Shown: positions 2,881 to 38,645 of the stretch, piece after piece
Numbering within the stretch: position 1 is the first letter of the stretch
Layout: each line of letters begins with the position of its first letter
Source: Nitrospirota bacterium
GTDB lineage: Bacteria > Nitrospirota > UBA9217
Assembly (NCBI GenBank): GCA_021783455.1
Contig: JAJXTW010000002.1
Span: 1-39,571, forward strand
Direction of reading: 5' to 3'
Length of the DNA: 39,571 bases
The notes under the pieces: generated by a model
The model's input: only the letters and a program-made list of their open reading frames with translations
What the model was told of the DNA's origin: nothing
Databases searched by the model: none
Position numbers and translations under genes: made by a program

Positions 2881-4611
2881 ATGGAAAGACGGGGGAGAAT
2901 AGTTGCGATATTGGCCATCATGGTCCTGGGCTTTCTGCTCGTGGCCCTGCGGCTGGTGTACCTCCAGGTATTTGAACGGGCAAAACTGACGGCACGCGCC
3001 GAGCGGCAGCAGGAACAGGTGCTGACGCTGGTGCCCAAACGCGGCGCTATTTTAGACCGCATGGGCAGAGCGCTCGCCGTCAGCCTCGATGTCGATTCGG
3101 TATACGGCATTCCCTCGAAGATCGACGACCCCCGCGCGCTGGCCCGACGGCTTTCCCGGATCCTGCATGAAAATCCGGCCACCCTGGAACGGAAGCTGGC
3201 CGGCGACAAGCATTTCGTCTGGCTGAGCCGCAAGGTCGATCCGACCGAAGCGGAGCAGGTCAAGGAGTTGGGGTCCGCGGAGATTCAGCTTCGAGCCGAA
3301 CCGAAGCGGTTTTATCCGAACAAATCCCTTGCCGGACCCCTGCTCGGGTTCGCCGGTATCGATAATGAAGGCCTCGAAGGTTTGGAACGGGCCTACGATA
3401 AGATCCTTCGCGGCGTCAACGGCTGGATGCTTGCGGAGATGGATGCCAAGGGACGAATGGTGTTTCCGGGCGGCTCAGGTTTTCAATATCACATGCCGAA
3501 GCCGGGCCATGACATCATCCTCACCATCGACGAGGTGATCCAGCATATCGCCGAGAAGGAGCTCGATGCCGCGCTGGCGAGCTCCCACGCCAAGGGAGGG
3601 GTCTGCATTGTTATGAATCCGCAGACCGGAGAAATCCTGGCGCTGTCGGTGCGGACGAACGGGTACGGTCGCCCGGCGTTCAACCCCAATGAACCGCAGC
3701 GCTACAAACCCGCGGAGTGGCGAAACCGGGCGGTGACGGATGCTTATGAACCCGGTTCCATATTCAAGGTGGTCCTGGCTTCAGCGGCGCTCGAAGAGCG
3801 CGTCGTCCACCCTCTGGAACGGCTCGATTGCAGCGCCGGGTACATCAAGCTCGCCGACCGCGAGATCAAGGACGCGCACAAAAACGGTGTGCTTACTTTT
3901 TCCGACGTGATCGCAGAATCGAGCAACGTGGGTACGATCAAGGTCGCGCTCCGGCTCGGCAAAGACCGGCTTTACAAATATATTACCGCTTTCGGGTTCG
4001 GCAAGAAGACCGGCGTGGACCTCCCCGGAGAAATTCCGGGTCTGCTCGAGGACACCCGGCTGTGGTCCGGCGTGTCTATCGGCGAGATCGCCATCGGCCA
4101 GGAGATCGGGGTGACCCCGCTCCAGATGGCCGCGGCCTACTGCGCGATCGCCAACGGCGGCGTGCTCATGAAGCCCTATACAGTCTCGGAGATTGTGGAC
4201 CCCGGCGGGGGAGCGGGGCAAAAATTCGGGCCCCAGCCCGTGGGGCGCGTCATTTCGGTAGAGACCTGCGCCAAGGTGGTCGGCTTGCTGAAGCGGGTGA
4301 TTGATATGGGCACGGGCCAGGAGGCAAAGCCCTCCGGGTACAGCGCGGCGGGAAAGACCGGCACGGCCCAGAAAATCGACCGCCGCACGGGCGAATACTC
4401 GAAGAAAAACTATGTGAGCTCGTTTGTCGGGTTCGCGCCGGCCAGCTCCCCGAGGGTTGTGATCCTTGTGATGATCGACACTCCGGAAAGTTCCATCTAC
4501 GGCGGCACGGTGGCGGCGCCGGTGTTCCGGGCAGTGGCGGAACAGAGCCTCGCCTATCTGCAGGTGGCGCCTGATGATATGGGAGGCAGGATGCTCCTGG
4601 TGACGAAATGA
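2881..4611 (+). CDS. ftsI: Peptidoglycan D,D-transpeptidase FtsI (PBP3 class)
   Basis: N-terminal TM segment; SxxK = SIFK, SxN = SSN, KTG = KTGT. Position within dcw. Confidence 0.92.
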   Translation: MERRGRIVAILAIMVLGFLLVALRLVYLQVFERAKLTARAERQQEQVLTLVPKRGAILDRMGRALAVSLDVDSVYGIPSKIDDPRALARRLSRILHENPATLERKLAGDKHFVWLSRKVDPTEAEQVKELGSAEIQLRAEPKRFYPNKSLAGPLLGFAGIDNEGLEGLERAYDKILRGVNGWMLAEMDAKGRMVFPGGSGFQYHMPKPGHDIILTIDEVIQHIAEKELDAALASSHAKGGVCIVMNPQTGEILALSVRTNGYGRPAFNPNEPQRYKPAEWRNRAVTDAYEPGSIFKVVLASAALEERVVHPLERLDCSAGYIKLADREIKDAHKNGVLTFSDVIAESSNVGTIKVALRLGKDRLYKYITAFGFGKKTGVDLPGEIPGLLEDTRLWSGVSIGEIAIGQEIGVTPLQMAAAYCAIANGGVLMKPYTVSEIVDPGGGAGQKFGPQPVGRVISVETCAKVVGLLKRVIDMGTGQEAKPSGYSAAGKTGTAQKIDRRTGEYSKKNYVSSFVGFAPASSPRVVILVMIDTPESSIYGGTVAAPVFRAVAEQSLAYLQVAPDDMGGRMLLVTK

Positions 4612-18054: not shown

Positions 18055-19314
18055 ATGGACGATAATCTAGAGTTCGGGTTCCAGGATATCATGGAATTTG
18101 TCGCGGGCGCTGAAGGCGGCATAAAGAACGAAAGCGATACAAGGAACGAAAGCGACGCACAGGGGGCACAGGTGGAGAGGAGGACAAACGCGATGTTCCA
18201 GTTTGAAGAGGAGGAGAGGCTGCCTGCCGTTATCAAAGTGATCGGCGTGGGAGGCGGCGGCAGCAATGCCGTGAGCACCATGGTCCAATCGGACATCAAA
18301 GGAGTTCAGTTCATCGTCGCGAACACCGACATGCAGGCCCTGGAACTCACGCGGGCGCCGATCAAGCTGCAGATCGGTTCCAAGCTTACCTGCGGCCGGG
18401 GGGCGGGAGCCAATCCCGAGATCGGCCGGAATGCCGCACTTGAGGACGCGGAGAAGATCAAGGCTGCCATCGCCGGCGCCGACATGGTCTTTATCACCGC
18501 GGGCATGGGAGGCGGCACGGGCACGGGGGCGGCCCCGGTGATCGCAAGCCTGGCCCGTGAAACGGGCGCCCTTGCCGTGGGCGTGGTCACGAAGCCCTTC
18601 AGCTTCGAAGGAGAAACGAGAAAGCACAAAGCCGAAGAAGGGATCGCCGAACTCAAAAAGAACGTGGACGCGCTCATCGTGATCCCGAATGAACGGCTCC
18701 TGAACCTGGCGGAAAAAAAGACCACGCTCCTGCAGTCCTTCAAGCTCGCCGACGGCGTGCTGGCCCAGGCAGTCAAGGGCATTTCCGACGTGGTCATGAA
18801 ACACGGCTACATGAACGTGGATTTTGCCGATGTGAAGACCGTGATGGCGAACCGCGGCAGGGCGGTCATGGGGACCGGCGTGGGGCGCGGGGAGGGACGG
18901 GCGACCGATGCGGCGCAGAAGGCCATTGCGAGCCCGCTGCTCGAAGACGGCTCCATCAAGGGCGCGCGGGCGGTGCTGATCAACGTCACCGGCGGCGAAG
19001 ACATGGGCATTTACGAGTTCAACGAGGCCTCGGCGATCATCAAGGAAGAGGCGGACCCCTCGGCGAACATCATCGTGGGGGTGGTGATCGATCCCGTGAT
19101 GAGCGAAGAGATCATGGTCACGGTGATTGCAACGGGTTTCGACGAGGAAGGCATCCGGGAACGGGTAAAGCGGCCGGTGAGCCTGAAGGACTTCATGAAG
19201 GTCACGGAACGGCCGAAGAAAAAGCAGGAAGCCTTCGACTTCAAGAACGAGGCGCTCGGCATCGACAGCGAGGACCTGGACAAGCCCACGTTCTTAAGAA
19301 GGCAGGCGGATTGA
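18055..19314 (+). CDS. ftsZ: Cell division GTPase FtsZ
   Basis: GVGGGGSNAV, the tubulin signature GGGTGTGAAPVIA, and the C-terminal peptide DKPTFLRRQAD. There are two plausible starts: ATG 18055 (GGAGGG upstream) or ATG 18193 (MFQFEEEE, GAGGAGGA upstream). Confidence 0.95.
   Translation: MDDNLEFGFQDIMEFVAGAEGGIKNESDTRNESDAQGAQVERRTNAMFQFEEEERLPAVIKVIGVGGGGSNAVSTMVQSDIKGVQFIVANTDMQALELTRAPIKLQIGSKLTCGRGAGANPEIGRNAALEDAEKIKAAIAGADMVFITAGMGGGTGTGAAPVIASLARETGALAVGVVTKPFSFEGETRKHKAEEGIAELKKNVDALIVIPNERLLNLAEKKTTLLQSFKLADGVLAQAVKGISDVVMKHGYMNVDFADVKTVMANRGRAVMGTGVGRGEGRATDAAQKAIASPLLEDGSIKGARAVLINVTGGEDMGIYEFNEASAIIKEEADPSANIIVGVVIDPVMSEEIMVTVIATGFDEEGIRERVKRPVSLKDFMKVTERPKKKQEAFDFKNEALGIDSEDLDKPTFLRRQAD
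18124..18159 (+). repeat. In-frame 18-nt tandem duplication inside the putative FtsZ N-terminal extension
   Basis: GAACGAAAGCGA occurs at 18126-18137 and 18144-18155. It encodes NESD(T/A)(R/Q) twice. Confidence 0.7.
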
Positions 19315-19334
19315 TCCTGCGGGACAATAAAAAA

Positions 19335-19390
19335 CCACAGGACACCGGGATGGTCGTGAAATGCATTCACGTCATTCCTGAATCCTGTGG
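19335..19390 (+). terminator. Hairpin in the convergent gap between ftsZ and the Cys-rich genes
   Basis: Stem CCACAGGA 19335-19342 / TCCTGTGG 19383-19390 encloses an inner hairpin CGTGAA 19355-19360 / TTCACG 19366-19371. There is no clean T-run, so terminator function is unproven. Confidence 0.3.
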
Positions 19391-19443
19391 CTCACGTGCG
19401 AAAAAAGTCGTTCTCAGTAACGCTCGCGCGGACGGGGATTTCC

Positions 19444-19815
19444 CTAGCGCCGCTTGAACTCAGCCGGTCTGGCATGGGCCATCGTACCCGCGGACATGCG
19501 CTGCTTTTCCAATGATTTGTCCAGGCCGAGGCGGGTAGCTGAGAAGCCGAGCGGAGTCGGCTCTTCCTCAAGCTTCACCGCATTCATGAAATCGCACCGC
19601 CAGCAGTTAGTCAGTTTTTGCGCATAGGTCCCCTGGATATTGCCTCCGCACAAGGACCCGGCGATGGCCCAGCATGCCCTGCCGGCATTTTTCCCGCCGT
19701 GCGCGCCGTGCAGTTCCTGACAGGTCGTGACCGGACAGATGCCCAGCTCCTGCGCTTTCGGCCCGCCGGGCTGGCGGCCGCATTTCTTGTGTTCCCAGCA
19801 ATTTATTTTTCCCAT
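19444..19815 (-). CDS. Small Cys-rich 'CW-motif' protein, paralog 1 (123 aa)
   Basis: MGKINCWEHKKCGRQPGG...GICP...GRACW...LCGG...NCWRC. SD GGAGGAG (plus-strand 19824-19830) lies 8 nt before the ATG. Confidence 0.7.
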   Translation of the reverse strand: MGKINCWEHKKCGRQPGGPKAQELGICPVTTCQELHGAHGGKNAGRACWAIAGSLCGGNIQGTYAQKLTNCWRCDFMNAVKLEEEPTPLGFSATRLGLDKSLEKQRMSAGTMAHARPAEFKRR

Positions 19816-19888
19816 ATATTACTCTCCTCCCGGGAATTGATTAAAAAGCGAACAAAGTTTTTCCGTTACGATAAAGCAGCAGCGCTTT

Positions 19889-20299
19889 TTAAAGCTGTTT
19901 TTTGTGGACGACACGTTGAGGCGAACCGCTTTGCTTGTGCTTCTGCTTTTCGAGCGTTTTTTCCATGCCCAGCCGCGTGTGGGAGAACCCGATCTCGGTC
20001 GGCTCTTCTTCCTTTTTTACCATGTTCATGAACTCGCAGCGCCAGCAATTGTTCAGCTTCTGCGCGTAGGTCCCCTGGATCTTTCCGCCGCACAAGGACC
20101 CTGCGACCACCCAGCACGCCCTGCCGGCATTTTTCCCCGCATGGGCGTTGTCCAAAGCCTTATGCGTGGTGGCCGGACATATTCCGAGTTCCTCGGCCTT
20201 GTGCCCGCCCGGCTGCCTGCCGCATTTTTTGAATTCCCAGCAATTCATCTTTACCTGGGTCTCGACCATAACCGGTGTCATGTCCTGTAGTTTTCCCAT
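19889..20299 (-). CDS. Small Cys-rich 'CW-motif' protein, paralog 2 (136 aa from ATG 20299)
   Basis: 78 of 101 core residues are identical to paralog 1 by hand count. GAGGA lies 7 nt before ATG 20299; the track start 20305 is a TTG two codons upstream. Confidence 0.7.
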   Translation of the reverse strand: MGKLQDMTPVMVETQVKMNCWEFKKCGRQPGGHKAEELGICPATTHKALDNAHAGKNAGRACWVVAGSLCGGKIQGTYAQKLNNCWRCEFMNMVKKEEEPTEIGFSHTRLGMEKTLEKQKHKQSGSPQRVVHKKQL

Positions 20300-20377
20300 A
20301 ATCAAGTCCTCACTTGTAGTGTGCGCCCGTTAGAAAAAACCCGTCCCAACAATCCCGCTTTTATTTTGCTTGCAATA

Positions 20378-20407
20378 AATATAATGTTCATGGAGGAGAA
20401 AAGTCAA
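20378..20407 (-). promoter_or_regulatory. Possible sigma70 promoter for the Cys-rich gene pair
   Basis: Reading the minus strand: TTGACT (20407-20402), an 18-nt spacer, then TATATT (20383-20378). Confidence 0.35.
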
Positions 20408-34625: not shown

Positions 34626-35447
34626 TTAGCGTTTTGTGTTCCTGTGCCTGTAATTGTTAGCCGCGGATTCCACCCATTGCCGGATATCATTAATATCTTT
34701 TAAATCCATTCCCCATTCTGTGGTGTTCGTTGCTTTTGCAAAGGAACGGGCGTCAGGTGTAAACCGAGACGTCGTTGCTAATATGGCCTTATTTGCACCC
34801 TCTTGCATTTGAGCTCCATAAAGAGCCCGAACGAATTGGACGCCAATTGGCGTTGTTAGGGCATAGCGCTTACATTCGATAAGGTATTTTGACTTTATAC
34901 CTAGATCTGATCTTATTGCGATAATATCCCTTCCGCCATCACGAGTTTGTTTTGTGAGTTCCACCATAAATCCATGAAGAGAGAATATATGTGCTATTAG
35001 TTCTTCAAACCTCCGTGGGTCAATCTTGTAGAGGATATCGGGCTTCTTTTTGACCTCATAAAGAAGTTCGGAAACACCTGAGCACAGATTTGTGATGATT
35101 TTCTTTTCTTCGGGGAGATATAGAAGCGATCCTTCATCGAATGAATAGAATTCGTCCTCAAAATGAAGGTCGATATCTGAAAATCCACGAATTATCTTTG
35201 CACCTTTAGCATTTGTTTCGTTGTAGTTTGGGGCGCCAATTGGATACTCTGATGCTTCGTAACTAACCTCTATAGGGTTATGACATTTGGGGCAGTCTAT
35301 TTCCACATCTCCGCTGTAGAAAATCTCTGGCCCCATCTGTCGCTCGTCTTCGTCAACCTGCTGTACGTCTAGATCATCTGCATCGATATGGAATGAATGC
35401 CCACATTTCTGGCACTCGATCTGTGCTGTTCCTGATAAAGATGCCAT
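34626..35447 (-). CDS. Mrr-type restriction endonuclease domain protein with an N-terminal double CxxC zinc ribbon
   Basis: CQKCGH...CPKCHN zinc ribbon. PD-(D/E)xK core FEELIAHIFSLHGF...GGRDIIAIR...YLIECKRY. ATG 35447 has AAGGAG 7 nt upstream. Confidence 0.8.
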   Translation of the reverse strand: MASLSGTAQIECQKCGHSFHIDADDLDVQQVDEDERQMGPEIFYSGDVEIDCPKCHNPIEVSYEASEYPIGAPNYNETNAKGAKIIRGFSDIDLHFEDEFYSFDEGSLLYLPEEKKIITNLCSGVSELLYEVKKKPDILYKIDPRRFEELIAHIFSLHGFMVELTKQTRDGGRDIIAIRSDLGIKSKYLIECKRYALTTPIGVQFVRALYGAQMQEGANKAILATTSRFTPDARSFAKATNTTEWGMDLKDINDIRQWVESAANNYRHRNTKR

Positions 35448-35895
35448 GCGACGACTCCTTTTTAAGTGGATAACGAGTCTGTAGAATAAGTACCTTTCAA
35501 AACACAAACGCACCAGGCTTCGTTTAACGCGATTAAACTTCTGTGATGTCGCTCGACGTTAACCAAGTGATGGAAAGTCCGCCATTCGGGCTCAGAATAG
35601 TCACCACCACTATTCTTATTAGCATCAGTGAAATTACGTCGCTGCCTTGAAGGGCCTAAAATGTGCCCTTTTAGGGGTTTTTCTACAGGCTCAACGCCCG
35701 AGGGGGGATAGGAAAGCATGGATTTTCAATGTTTACCAGTTTAGCAATGAACATGCCATCGTGATATCAGAATGACTAAATGCCTGAATTTAAGAGATGT
35801 AACGTGATAGACGAAACAACTTTATTCTGATCTTAAAAGGAAGTCAATCAGGGATTCCCTATTTTTTTTTGATTTCCCTGATGTACGAAGACCGG

Positions 35896-36315
35896 CTAGG
35901 GGTTGGTATCCTGACGCGTTGAGAGAAAATAAAAAAAGATCAGTGCAGCCACATACGCACTCAGGCCGAGCGTCTCGATCTGGAACACGGAAGAATTAAT
36001 ATCTGGAGACAGCGCATGAAAATCCGTGCTGCTGTTAATCACGTTCAGGCCGAAGATCGCGCCGATGCCTGCGATGAGGATCGCTTTGACCGCATCCCGA
36101 TTTTTCACCGGATCAAGAGAAGCGGCAAAGAGAAAAGCCGACCAGCCGAACGATAAAAAAGAGATGATCTTGTCCTGGTATCCATAGGAAGGAACGTCGA
36201 AATAGACGAACAACAGCGGCACCTTGGTCCCGAGCATATGTGCGATGGCAACTGCCAGAAAGTAGAGGGCGCCGATCAGTAACAGCCATTTAAGTATCGC
36301 GGTGTTCTTGTTCAT
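35896..36315 (-). CDS. Small integral membrane protein (4 predicted TM helices), unknown function
   Basis: Hydrophobic segments throughout. ATG 36315 (MNKNTAILKWLLLIGALYF); the track ORF extends to GTG 36357. Confidence 0.55.
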   Translation of the reverse strand: MNKNTAILKWLLLIGALYFLAVAIAHMLGTKVPLLFVYFDVPSYGYQDKIISFLSFGWSAFLFAASLDPVKNRDAVKAILIAGIGAIFGLNVINSSTDFHALSPDINSSVFQIETLGLSAYVAALIFFYFLSTRQDTNP

Positions 36316-36364
36316 AGCATCCAGGCCTTTCTTTGAAATGCGTTCTCCAGCTAACACCGGTTAC

Positions 36365-37685: not shown

Positions 37686-38645
37686 TCAATACCACTGCCT
37701 CAGAACTTCATTTCGCTCGACAACGTGCGGAAAGGTCATCGGCTTCAGTTGCAGGGTCCGGTCCTGGCCGTGAAAGAGATCAATTTCATAGGGCTGGCCG
37801 AGCGTGTTCGCAAAATAGTGCCAGGTGAACAGCTCGGCGAAATCCTCTGCCCAGTTTTGACTGCCGTATAATGACGGGAAAGGGGTTTCCGCGAGCCGTT
37901 GGTAAATCTTGTGTGCGTCCGAGATCTTTATGCGAGGACCGCCCTGCAATCCGTAAAAAACGATGTTTTTGTGCTGCTCGAACTCAAACTGCGGGGCAGG
38001 CGTTGAAAAGTCTTTCCACACACTTCGGGTGAGCGCGGTCGACGAGGGGACGGCGGTTTTGGCGATGTATGTCATGTCTTTTTCAACGTACGGCGTCCGG
38101 TGGTCCACATAATCCACGAGATGAGCGGACTCGTGCAGGAGCGCATACAGGAAGCCCTGGTACTGCGTGCCGCAATTCACCTTGATCCGGACTGACGGGT
38201 CGTCCTTGATGAAACAGGAGTTCTCCCGAATGGTCATCCAGGTCGAGATGTCCGTTTTCAACGAGTCCGGATTGAACACCATGATTGCGAAAAGATCGCC
38301 CCTTTCATCCAGGACGTAATCGGTCAAGCCGCTCCCCATGAAATTATTCACGAAGTAGATCGCGATGAGGCGGCTCTTCAGAAGTTCCTGGTGGGACTTC
38401 GGCAAAAGCGTGAGATACTTTTCGATCAGCGCCAGTTCCTCCGGAGTCGGGGCGTACGATGAATAGCCGTCGACAAGGTCCATGCGCCTCAAGGCATTGA
38501 GCAGAAATTCCGGCGCAGGTTTCACCCGCGCGATGAGCGGTGCGGCGCTGTCGAATTTGTAGGAACGCAGGTTCTTTGAAGGGATTTTTGCGGTGGTATC
38601 GAGAAAGCGCTTCTCCGGCGTAGCGCACGAGAGGAGTGTGAGCAA
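37686..38645 (-). CDS. Putative zinc metallopeptidase lipoprotein (HExxH); N-terminus unresolved
   Basis: HESAH within LLHESAHLVDY and a later EDFAE. The open frame upstream of the annotated TTG reads RKLIFLFSVLLTLLSC, which is a signal peptide plus lipobox. Confidence 0.6.
   Translation of the reverse strand: MLTLLSCATPEKRFLDTTAKIPSKNLRSYKFDSAAPLIARVKPAPEFLLNALRRMDLVDGYSSYAPTPEELALIEKYLTLLPKSHQELLKSRLIAIYFVNNFMGSGLTDYVLDERGDLFAIMVFNPDSLKTDISTWMTIRENSCFIKDDPSVRIKVNCGTQYQGFLYALLHESAHLVDYVDHRTPYVEKDMTYIAKTAVPSSTALTRSVWKDFSTPAPQFEFEQHKNIVFYGLQGGPRIKISDAHKIYQRLAETPFPSLYGSQNWAEDFAELFTWHYFANTLGQPYEIDLFHGQDRTLQLKPMTFPHVVERNEVLRQWY

Follow-up and report, generated by a model that had tools for sequence, protein, structure and literature searches.

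What are two small, cysteine-rich proteins encoded side by side next to ftsZ, and what might they do? This question was raised by a 39,571-nucleotide stretch of DNA (contig JAJXTW010000002.1, positions 1 to 39,571, assembly GCA_021783455.1) from a Nitrospirota bacterium of the GTDB lineage UBA9217, referred to here as the window. The two genes, here called A and B, lie in tandem on the minus strand (Table 1). A first-pass annotation made from the sequence alone had brought up the label "two-CW domain" for their products. This label proved correct when the proteins were scored against the NCBIfam model NF045718 (two_CW_domain; 80 positions, curated cut-off 35 bits), as A reached 97.9 bits and B 105.2 bits, both far over the cut-off. 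Both proteins are members of the two-CW family. They match the full model, with nothing structural to set them apart, and their subfamily adds a conserved GFSxTRLG...LEKQ tail. The family is already catalogued and NCBI names such proteins, including homologs in Methanosphaerula palustris, Thorarchaeota and Hodarchaeota, but the model carries a name only and the family is functionally blank. Literature searches on the two-CW family and on Cys-rich sensors found no relevant paper; a heliorhodopsin paper considered as a candidate was set aside because the Cys-rich extensions in it are unrelated.

The products of A and B aligned by BLASTP without a single gap, with 79 of 104 residues identical (76%, E = 1e-61). 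This is in line with the gapless paralogy and the hand count of 78 of 101 given before. The core DNA of the two copies, which lie about 0.44 kb apart, is 74.7% identical. Seven cysteines are common to both proteins (C20, C26, C41, C62, C70, C85 and C88 in B), with the spacing C-x5-C-x14-C-x20-C-x7-C-x14-C-x2-C. To this extent the seven invariant cysteines described by the first-pass annotation were found, while A holds an eighth, C32, that is not conserved. Its three Cys-Trp dipeptides are likewise present in A and B, but only C20-W21 and C62-W63 are conserved across the family; the third, within NCWRC, is not a family feature and has Trp in just 117 of 282 domain instances. As claimed, both proteins contain an EEEPT linker and a GFSxTRLGxxKxLEKQ tail and end in basic C-termini that diverge between the two, and both are basic (isoelectric point 9.3). 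The reported lack of a signal peptide or transmembrane helix agrees with the absence of any hydrophobic stretch in A or B (maximum Kyte-Doolittle means over 19 residues of 0.67 and 0.76). A Pfam scan, in a library that has no two-CW model, returned nothing significant for either protein, consistent with the earlier statement that they carry no enzymatic or DNA-binding domain, and scans with PADLOC and PHROGs gave no match to an anti-phage defence or phage protein.

We then asked how widespread the domain is and how much of its cysteine pattern is retained. With protein B as the query, 3,111 homologous proteins were recovered, and a broad profile built from 59 diverse stand-alone members brought the family to at least 7,795 clusters at 90% identity. 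At 50% identity, an exhaustive hidden Markov model search identified 1,852 representative clusters, 1,044 of them with E <= 1e-10. Among the best 150 of these representatives, 100 were no longer than 170 residues, 26 measured 171–299 residues and 24 measured 300 or more. The stand-alone form is therefore the norm of the family and not an oddity; the first-pass annotation had regarded it as unusual, whereas proteins of about 100–140 residues are the majority. Identity across phyla ranged from 55 to 80%, at about 55% between Nitrospirota and Asgard archaea. The named hosts comprise Thermodesulfovibrionia-type Nitrospirota, Methanoregula, Methanosphaerula palustris, Ammonifex degensii, Thor- and Hodarchaeota, Desulfobacteraceae and Omnitrophica, almost all of which we take to belong to anaerobic lineages. 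The closest genome relatives of the pair are Nitrospirota metagenome-assembled genomes (MAGs), the nearest locus (L005) at 91% identity, and several paralogs per genome are common, with at least four loci in the MAG MFD03899.bin.2.142.

All seven cysteines were kept in 262 of the 282 domain instances, a conservation far beyond chance. The fifth cysteine was the sole recurrent internal loss (8 cases; about 97% conserved). The other six were essentially invariant, and strictly so in the 59 diverse stand-alone members. The two family-wide Cys-Trp pairs were retained almost as strictly, with W21 present in all 276 ungapped instances and W63 in 275 of 282. No histidine was invariant, and position 53, the one candidate His ligand, held His in 176 and Asn in 97 of the 282 instances. 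When the two halves of the domain were compared by hhalign, C20/C62, C26/C70 and C41/C85 fell into register (CW-x4/6-CG-x14-C), and this weak match (E = 0.021, probability 2%) is only suggestive of an internal duplication within the domain. Outside the domain, 46 of the 92 copies taken from genomes had the GFSxTRLG...LEKQ tail, every one of them from a single Nitrospirota clade, and G104, F105, S106, T108, L110 and G111 of B showed no variation among 112 stand-alone homologs.

For function, we rely chiefly on the long members of the family. In a Pfam census of 44 such proteins, the two-CW domain was joined to HATPase_c (13), Response_reg (8), HisKA (8), PAS (about 8), cNMP_binding (5) and Pkinase (4) domains, and further to GGDEF, MCPsignal, nucleotide cyclase and GAF domains (2 each) as well as to PP2C and NIT. 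The first-pass annotation had placed the module at the N-terminus of some signalling proteins. We found it there, in arrangements such as 2CW-RR-PAS-HK, 2CW-GAF-HK, 2CW-PAS-GAF-HK, 2CW-cyclase and 2CW-cNMP-kinase-cyclase (2CW, two-CW domain; RR, response regulator; HK, histidine kinase), and also at C-terminal or internal places, as in PAS-HK-2CW, NIT-MCP-2CW and cNMP-kinase-2CW-PP2C. Such a pattern is characteristic of a promiscuous module of cytoplasmic signalling. Because the domain is fused to varied signalling proteins in anaerobic bacteria and archaea, two-CW seems to behave as an input or regulatory module of cytoplasmic signalling.

We also examined whether the tandem arrangement of A and B is peculiar to this genome. 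About 22 of the 80 related genome loci examined have a second two-CW copy on the same strand within 0.5 kb. In the cultured methanogen Methanosphaerula palustris, two highly similar stand-alone genes encoding 106 residues each lie next to each other (CP001338.1, about 1.197–1.205 Mb; positions 3253-3573 and 4001-4321 of the extracted locus L087), with genes for a HATPase_c and an RR-GAF-HATPase protein on their flanks, and this pair occurs independently of those in Nitrospirota. In Asgard archaea and others, two two-CW domains occur within one chain. The duplicated form, which had been thought unusual, is thus recurrent, and within the family the A/B pair is ordinary and nothing exceptional. 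From the tandem pairs, the M. palustris pair and the single-chain tandems together, we infer that the two-CW module works in pairs.

The two genes of the pair are not recent copies of each other. In a neighbour-joining tree, B clustered with the first-position copies of four other loci (L005, L007, L008 and L024), and A with the second-position copies of other Nitrospirota loci. Since the tree groups the copies by position across genomes, A and B represent old, separately maintained orthogroups with type-specific residues. The B type is marked by CWEF/CPA/CWVVAG/CEF/GFSHTRLGME and an N-terminal extension of about 17 residues, and the A type by CWEH/CPV/CWAIAG/CDF/GFSATRLGLD without that extension. 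The synonymous divergence (dS) between the two paralogs was about 1.35, with a ratio of nonsynonymous to synonymous divergence (dN/dS) of 0.13; against orthologs the ratio was 0.06–0.10 for A and 0.11 for B (L005 ortholog). These ratios of 0.06–0.13 indicate that both genes are under purifying selection.

Copies in the related loci were taken from tblastn hits and not from length-based calls of open reading frames (ORFs), because picking ORFs by length had chosen an antisense ORF over the real two-CW gene in about 20 of these loci. In the window, antisense ORFs at 19618-20031 (+) and 19904-20290 (+), of 137 and 128 residues, span both two-CW genes; such long antisense ORFs are probably an artefact of codon composition. 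One variant locus (L012) has its two-CW copies at 1-297 and 1336-1710 with trmJ between them. In two others (L053, 5447-6076, and L038, 6028-6354) a copy is split or truncated as extracted, which may reflect a frameshift, a pseudogene or an assembly error.

The genomic surroundings of the pair were considered next. As the first-pass annotation had stated, the pair is convergent on ftsZ (18055-19314, +), which faces gene A and closes a full division and cell wall (dcw) cluster of the order mraW ... ftsW-murG-murC-murB-ddl-ftsQ-ftsA-ftsZ. The arrangement of trmJ, two-CW and convergent ftsZ was conserved in one Nitrospirota lineage, with TrmJ in 20, FtsZ in 16, FtsA in 14 and an MBL-fold gene in 11 of the 80 related loci, and FtsZ identity in the syntenic loci went down to 62%. 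To the question raised earlier, whether homologs always lie near dcw or hgcAB genes, the answer is negative on both counts. The link to dcw is the ordinary synteny of one Nitrospirota lineage, with other paralogs lying elsewhere, and HgcA was found in none of the 80 related loci. No maturase and no constant partner gene was found nearby, in agreement with what had been noted for the surroundings of the pair. The immediate neighbours of stand-alone copies included PAS (11 of 150), Response_reg (7), HD-GYP-type HD_5 (6), GAF (6) and HAMP (6) proteins. PAS neighbours exceeded those among distal control genes of the same loci (11 of 150 versus at most 2 of 116; p = 0.03, uncorrected). The neighbourhood evidence is weak, because only PAS stands out and at this uncorrected p value. 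In one locus (L088), RR-GAF and PAS-HAMP-MCP genes flank the two-CW gene. In four loci from Thermodesulfovibrionales and Sulfobium MAGs (L058, L066, L073 and L077), a stand-alone two-CW gene of about 100 residues adjoins a gene of about 570–705 residues. By their length these neighbours are probably the four selB-domain neighbours of the census, and the arrangement is likely lineage synteny.

Structure prediction was carried out with AlphaFold2. The model of B, based on 112 stand-alone homologs, consisted of short helices with a mean predicted local distance difference test score (pLDDT) of 72 and a predicted TM-score (pTM) of 0.63, and its C-terminal helix at residues 109-124 was confidently placed (block pLDDT 83–85). 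A natural tandem two-domain protein (P0121) gave a model with a pLDDT of 85 and a pTM of 0.74, in which the sole weak part of each domain was the loop with the fifth cysteine. Foldseek searches of the PDB with both models returned no relative (best TM-score 0.13–0.16, E > 3), and a sequence profile search of the PDB likewise returned none, with a non-significant ferredoxin match at E = 0.41.

Among known systems, the two-CW domain is most like small metal-binding signalling modules, resembling CZB by architecture and Wbl by lifestyle. CZB is a small cytoplasmic zinc module, a four-helix bundle with a 3His/1Cys zinc site, that is placed after the signalling domain of chemoreceptors, before nucleotide cyclases, or alone. 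Two-CW occupies the same placements (NIT-MCP-2CW, 2CW-cyclase and stand-alone). It differs from CZB in having six to seven cysteines, no conserved histidine and no fold match in the PDB, and identity with CZB was rejected for want of a Pfam match and of an invariant histidine. The Wbl proteins of Actinobacteria hold an O2- and NO-sensitive [4Fe-4S] cluster on four cysteines and act by protein-protein contact. Like them, stand-alone two-CW proteins are small, soluble and Cys-rich, come as several paralogs in one genome and have basic C-termini that vary. Unlike them, they have seven cysteines in place of four, are often fused to kinases or cyclases, and occur in Nitrospirota, methanogens, Asgard archaea and others and not in Actinobacteria. 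Membership in Whib was rejected, as there was no Pfam match at E <= 1 and the cysteine spacing differs from C-Xn-C-X2-C-X5-C. A Fer4 ferredoxin was likewise rejected, with no Fer4 match and no CxxCxxCxxxCP motif. Among zinc fingers (PHD, zf-CW and ribbons), only PHD_4 appeared, with an E value of 0.25 and a score of 11.7 bits where the cut-off is 30.6; the protein has a single CxxC, and this identity was rejected as well. With the eukaryotic zf-CW, a chromatin reader, the family has nothing in common beyond its name and the fact that both contain Cys and Trp; the number and spacing of the cysteines differ, and there was no Pfam match at E <= 1.

Taken together, these observations are compatible with A and B forming a dimeric cytoplasmic metal-cluster signalling module that acts in trans, and we judge the chances of this reading to be about even. 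The domain of about 80 residues is small, glycine-rich and soluble, and one or two metal centres are most probably bound within it. We moderately favour a labile centre, Fe-S or other, over structural zinc, which keeps a smaller but real share of the probability, because only one CxxC knuckle is present, the cysteines lie in glycine-rich loops beside aromatics, no histidine is conserved, and the hosts presumably belong to anaerobic lineages. The metal, Fe-S or redox sensor that the first-pass annotation had guessed would fit all of these observations. In the mechanism we favour, A and B would pair up as a heterodimer, mirrored by the natural single-chain tandem fusions, and a change in the state of the metal centre would alter its conformation. 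The signal would then pass by protein-protein contact, via the conserved C-terminal helix with its GFSxTRLG...LEKQ motif, to a partner encoded elsewhere, so that the stand-alone proteins would do in trans the job of the fused modules. A more specific version is possible, if doubtful: two-CW may be a new-fold sensor of oxygen, redox state or a small molecule in anaerobic bacteria and archaea, with an Fe-S or labile cluster, a pseudo-repeat (CW-x4/6-CG-x14-C twice plus one Cys) and a dimeric state. A and B would then be a free heterodimeric sensor regulating kinases, cyclases or chemoreceptors in trans.

Several observations weigh against a trans-acting metal sensor. The pair's own neighbours in the window, trmJ and ftsZ, are housekeeping genes, and HATPase_c, GAF and Response_reg genes were not enriched beside stand-alone copies when compared with the distal control genes of the same loci. 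The domain also sits after the kinase catalytic core, a placement equally compatible with a sensor and with a docking or regulatory module. Its single CxxC knuckle matched neither the classical zinc-finger nor the ferredoxin motif, and the literature searches turned up no cofactor, ligand or partner on record for any two-CW member. In the model of B, segment 61-90, with four of the seven cysteines, reached a pLDDT of only 60–68, and the pTM of the tandem protein is only indirect for the packing of its domains.

The alternatives differ in what the cysteines would be for. A structural zinc-binding or metal-stapled interaction or dimerisation adaptor, with no sensing at all, would link signalling proteins with one another or anchor them on a scaffold, and the stand-alone proteins would be adaptors or competitive inhibitors. 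The occurrence of the domain at N-terminal, internal and C-terminal places, including after HATPase_c, suits such an adaptor, as do the identity of 55–80% across phyla, which is expected of a metal-stapled mini-domain, the weak PHD_4 similarity (E = 0.25), and the tandem fusions and gene pairs, which suggest self-association. It is nevertheless rather unlikely, since zinc fingers normally use two CxxC knuckles where two-CW has one, no zinc-finger family other than the insignificant PHD_4 matched at E <= 1, and a purely structural zinc site would not predict hosts that we take to be almost all from anaerobic lineages. If A and B were instead small redox regulators of the WhiB kind, that is, Cys-rich Fe-S proteins whose basic tails bind nucleic acid or the transcription machinery, their small size, cysteine content, isoelectric point of 9.3 and basic C-termini would be in keeping, and so would the many paralogs per genome (at least four loci in MFD03899.bin.2.142). 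One paralog locus is moreover fixed beside ftsZ in 16 genomes, which recalls the link of WhiB2/WhmD to septation. We consider this improbable, because neither the Whib family of Pfam nor any DNA-binding family was matched, the fusion partners are kinases, cyclases and chemoreceptors and not DNA-binding or sigma-related domains, and the basic C-termini are not conserved.

The position at the end of the dcw cluster could also point to a regulator of cell division acting on FtsZ or the divisome, and the order of trmJ, two-CW and convergent ftsZ and ftsA is kept in 16–20 of 80 loci. The same block, however, keeps trmJ and the MBL-fold gene, as in plain housekeeping synteny. Most family members, including most paralogs of the same genome, lie elsewhere, and the genes are convergent with ftsZ and not co-transcribed with it, so that the chance of a division role is very small. 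Slighter still is the case for small ferredoxin-like electron carriers, a poorly supported reading. Seven cysteines equal the ligand count of 7Fe ferredoxins, the hosts are of anaerobic lineages, and Fer4_5 membrane proteins lie alongside in 5 of 150 cases, yet Fer4 and the CxxCxxCxxxCP motif are lacking, the fusions are with signalling domains and not with oxidoreductases, and no redox-enzyme neighbour is conserved. Precursors of Cys-rich modified peptides (RiPPs) would also be small, Cys-rich and duplicated. This reading, too, is poorly supported and is barely credible for A and B: there is no maturase near the pair in the window, Radical_SAM neighbours (4 of 150 versus 3 of 116 controls) are not enriched, which argues against it, and the conservation of a whole 80-residue domain across phyla, together with its fusion to enzymes, is not precursor-like.

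Returning to the locus itself, the signals around the pair (Table 1) suggest that A and B form what looks like a self-contained bicistronic unit. The good Shine-Dalgarno sequences that the first-pass annotation had assigned to both genes correspond to Shine-Dalgarno-like sequences 5′ of both starts. The promoter it had considered plausible was recovered as a promoter-like site by a consensus scan of the 181 nt that separate trmJ from gene B, and a near-consensus site of the form TTGAC[AT]-N17-18-TATA[TG]T recurred in 11 of 13 trmJ-to-two-CW intergenic regions of syntenic relatives. The start of gene B was placed at the ATG at 20299, which is used in public gene calls (4 independent contigs with the identical protein); an alternative TTG start at 20305 would give a protein of 138 residues (ORF 19889..20305). 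The 129 nt that lie 3′ of gene A and separate it from ftsZ contain a long terminator-like hairpin. RNA folding of 19320-19445 (-) gave a minimum free energy of -43.1 kcal/mol (z = -2.83 versus shuffles), and the near-palindrome GTGAATGCATTTCAC lies within the inner loop of this nested hairpin. A simple terminator scan had missed it because its loop exceeds 8 nt. An Rfam scan of the locus found no RNA family.

Table 1. Coordinates of the two-CW genes, their domains and tails, and the putative expression signals in the window.
Feature	Position	Strand	Description	Basis or remark
Gene A	19444..19815	-	Stand-alone two-CW protein, 123 aa, A-type orthogroup	ORF; NF045718, 97.9 bits
Gene B	19889..20299	-	Stand-alone two-CW protein, 136 aa, B-type orthogroup	ORF; NF045718, 105.2 bits
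Two-CW domain of A	19573..19803	-	Residues 5-81	NF045718 profile positions 2-78/80
Two-CW domain of B	20009..20248	-	Residues 18-97	NF045718 profile positions 1-80/80
Conserved tail of A	19501..19548	-	GFSATRLGLDKSLEKQ	Gapless alignment to B tail; subfamily motif
Conserved tail of B	19943..19990	-	GFSHTRLGMEKTLEKQ	Overlaps predicted helix 109-124
Shine-Dalgarno-like sequence, gene A	19824..19831	-	GGGAGGAG, 8 nt 5′ of gene A ATG	Read from sequence
Shine-Dalgarno-like sequence, gene B	20307..20313	-	GTGAGGA, 7 nt 5′ of gene B ATG	Read from sequence
Sigma-70-type promoter-like site	20378..20407	-	TTGACT-18-TATATT	Consensus scan, 10/12 matches
Terminator-like long hairpin	19329..19393	-	Stem CCACAGGA/UCCUGUGG, structured loop, then U6	RNA fold

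Elsewhere in the window, about 9 kb from the two-CW pair, we identified hgcA at 29033-30178 (-) (NF040863, 397 bits versus a cut-off of 275) and hgcB at 28743-29048 (-) (NF040864, 123 bits versus a cut-off of 99), which make the source organism a putative mercury-methylating Nitrospirota; hgcAB showed no linkage to two-CW in the 80 related loci. Directly 5′ of hgcA, with an 8-nt overlap, a gene at 30171-32102 (-) encodes a 643-residue protein that joins an ElsL-like L,D-carboxypeptidase (YkuD) domain to a MurC/Mpl-like ligase, and it looks like an unusual peptidoglycan-recycling fusion beside the mercury methylation genes. A DUF3800 protein at 33561-34589 (-) lies beside a protein with an Mrr_cat restriction-endonuclease domain at 34626-35513 (-), and the two may form a small defence-type islet. 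The ORF at 26772-27398 (-) had no match in NCBIfam, the one library with which it was scanned, and those at 33100-33546 (-), 35896-36357 (-) and 37686-38645 (-) had none in Pfam, the one library used for them.

What makes these findings interesting is the family, a clearly delimited "known unknown", and not this particular pair. Two-CW is large and highly conserved, and its domain is connected to all major types of prokaryotic signalling enzyme. The small size of its stand-alone members (100–140 residues), together with the pair of the cultured M. palustris flanked by kinase genes, offers a tractable experimental start. If the new-fold sensor reading were true, the family would constitute a widespread, undescribed class of one-domain redox sensors that extends to Asgard archaea. 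If two-CW holds a labile cluster, it would represent an unrecognised form of oxygen or redox sensing in anaerobes, including mercury-methylating Nitrospirota, methanogens and Asgard archaea.

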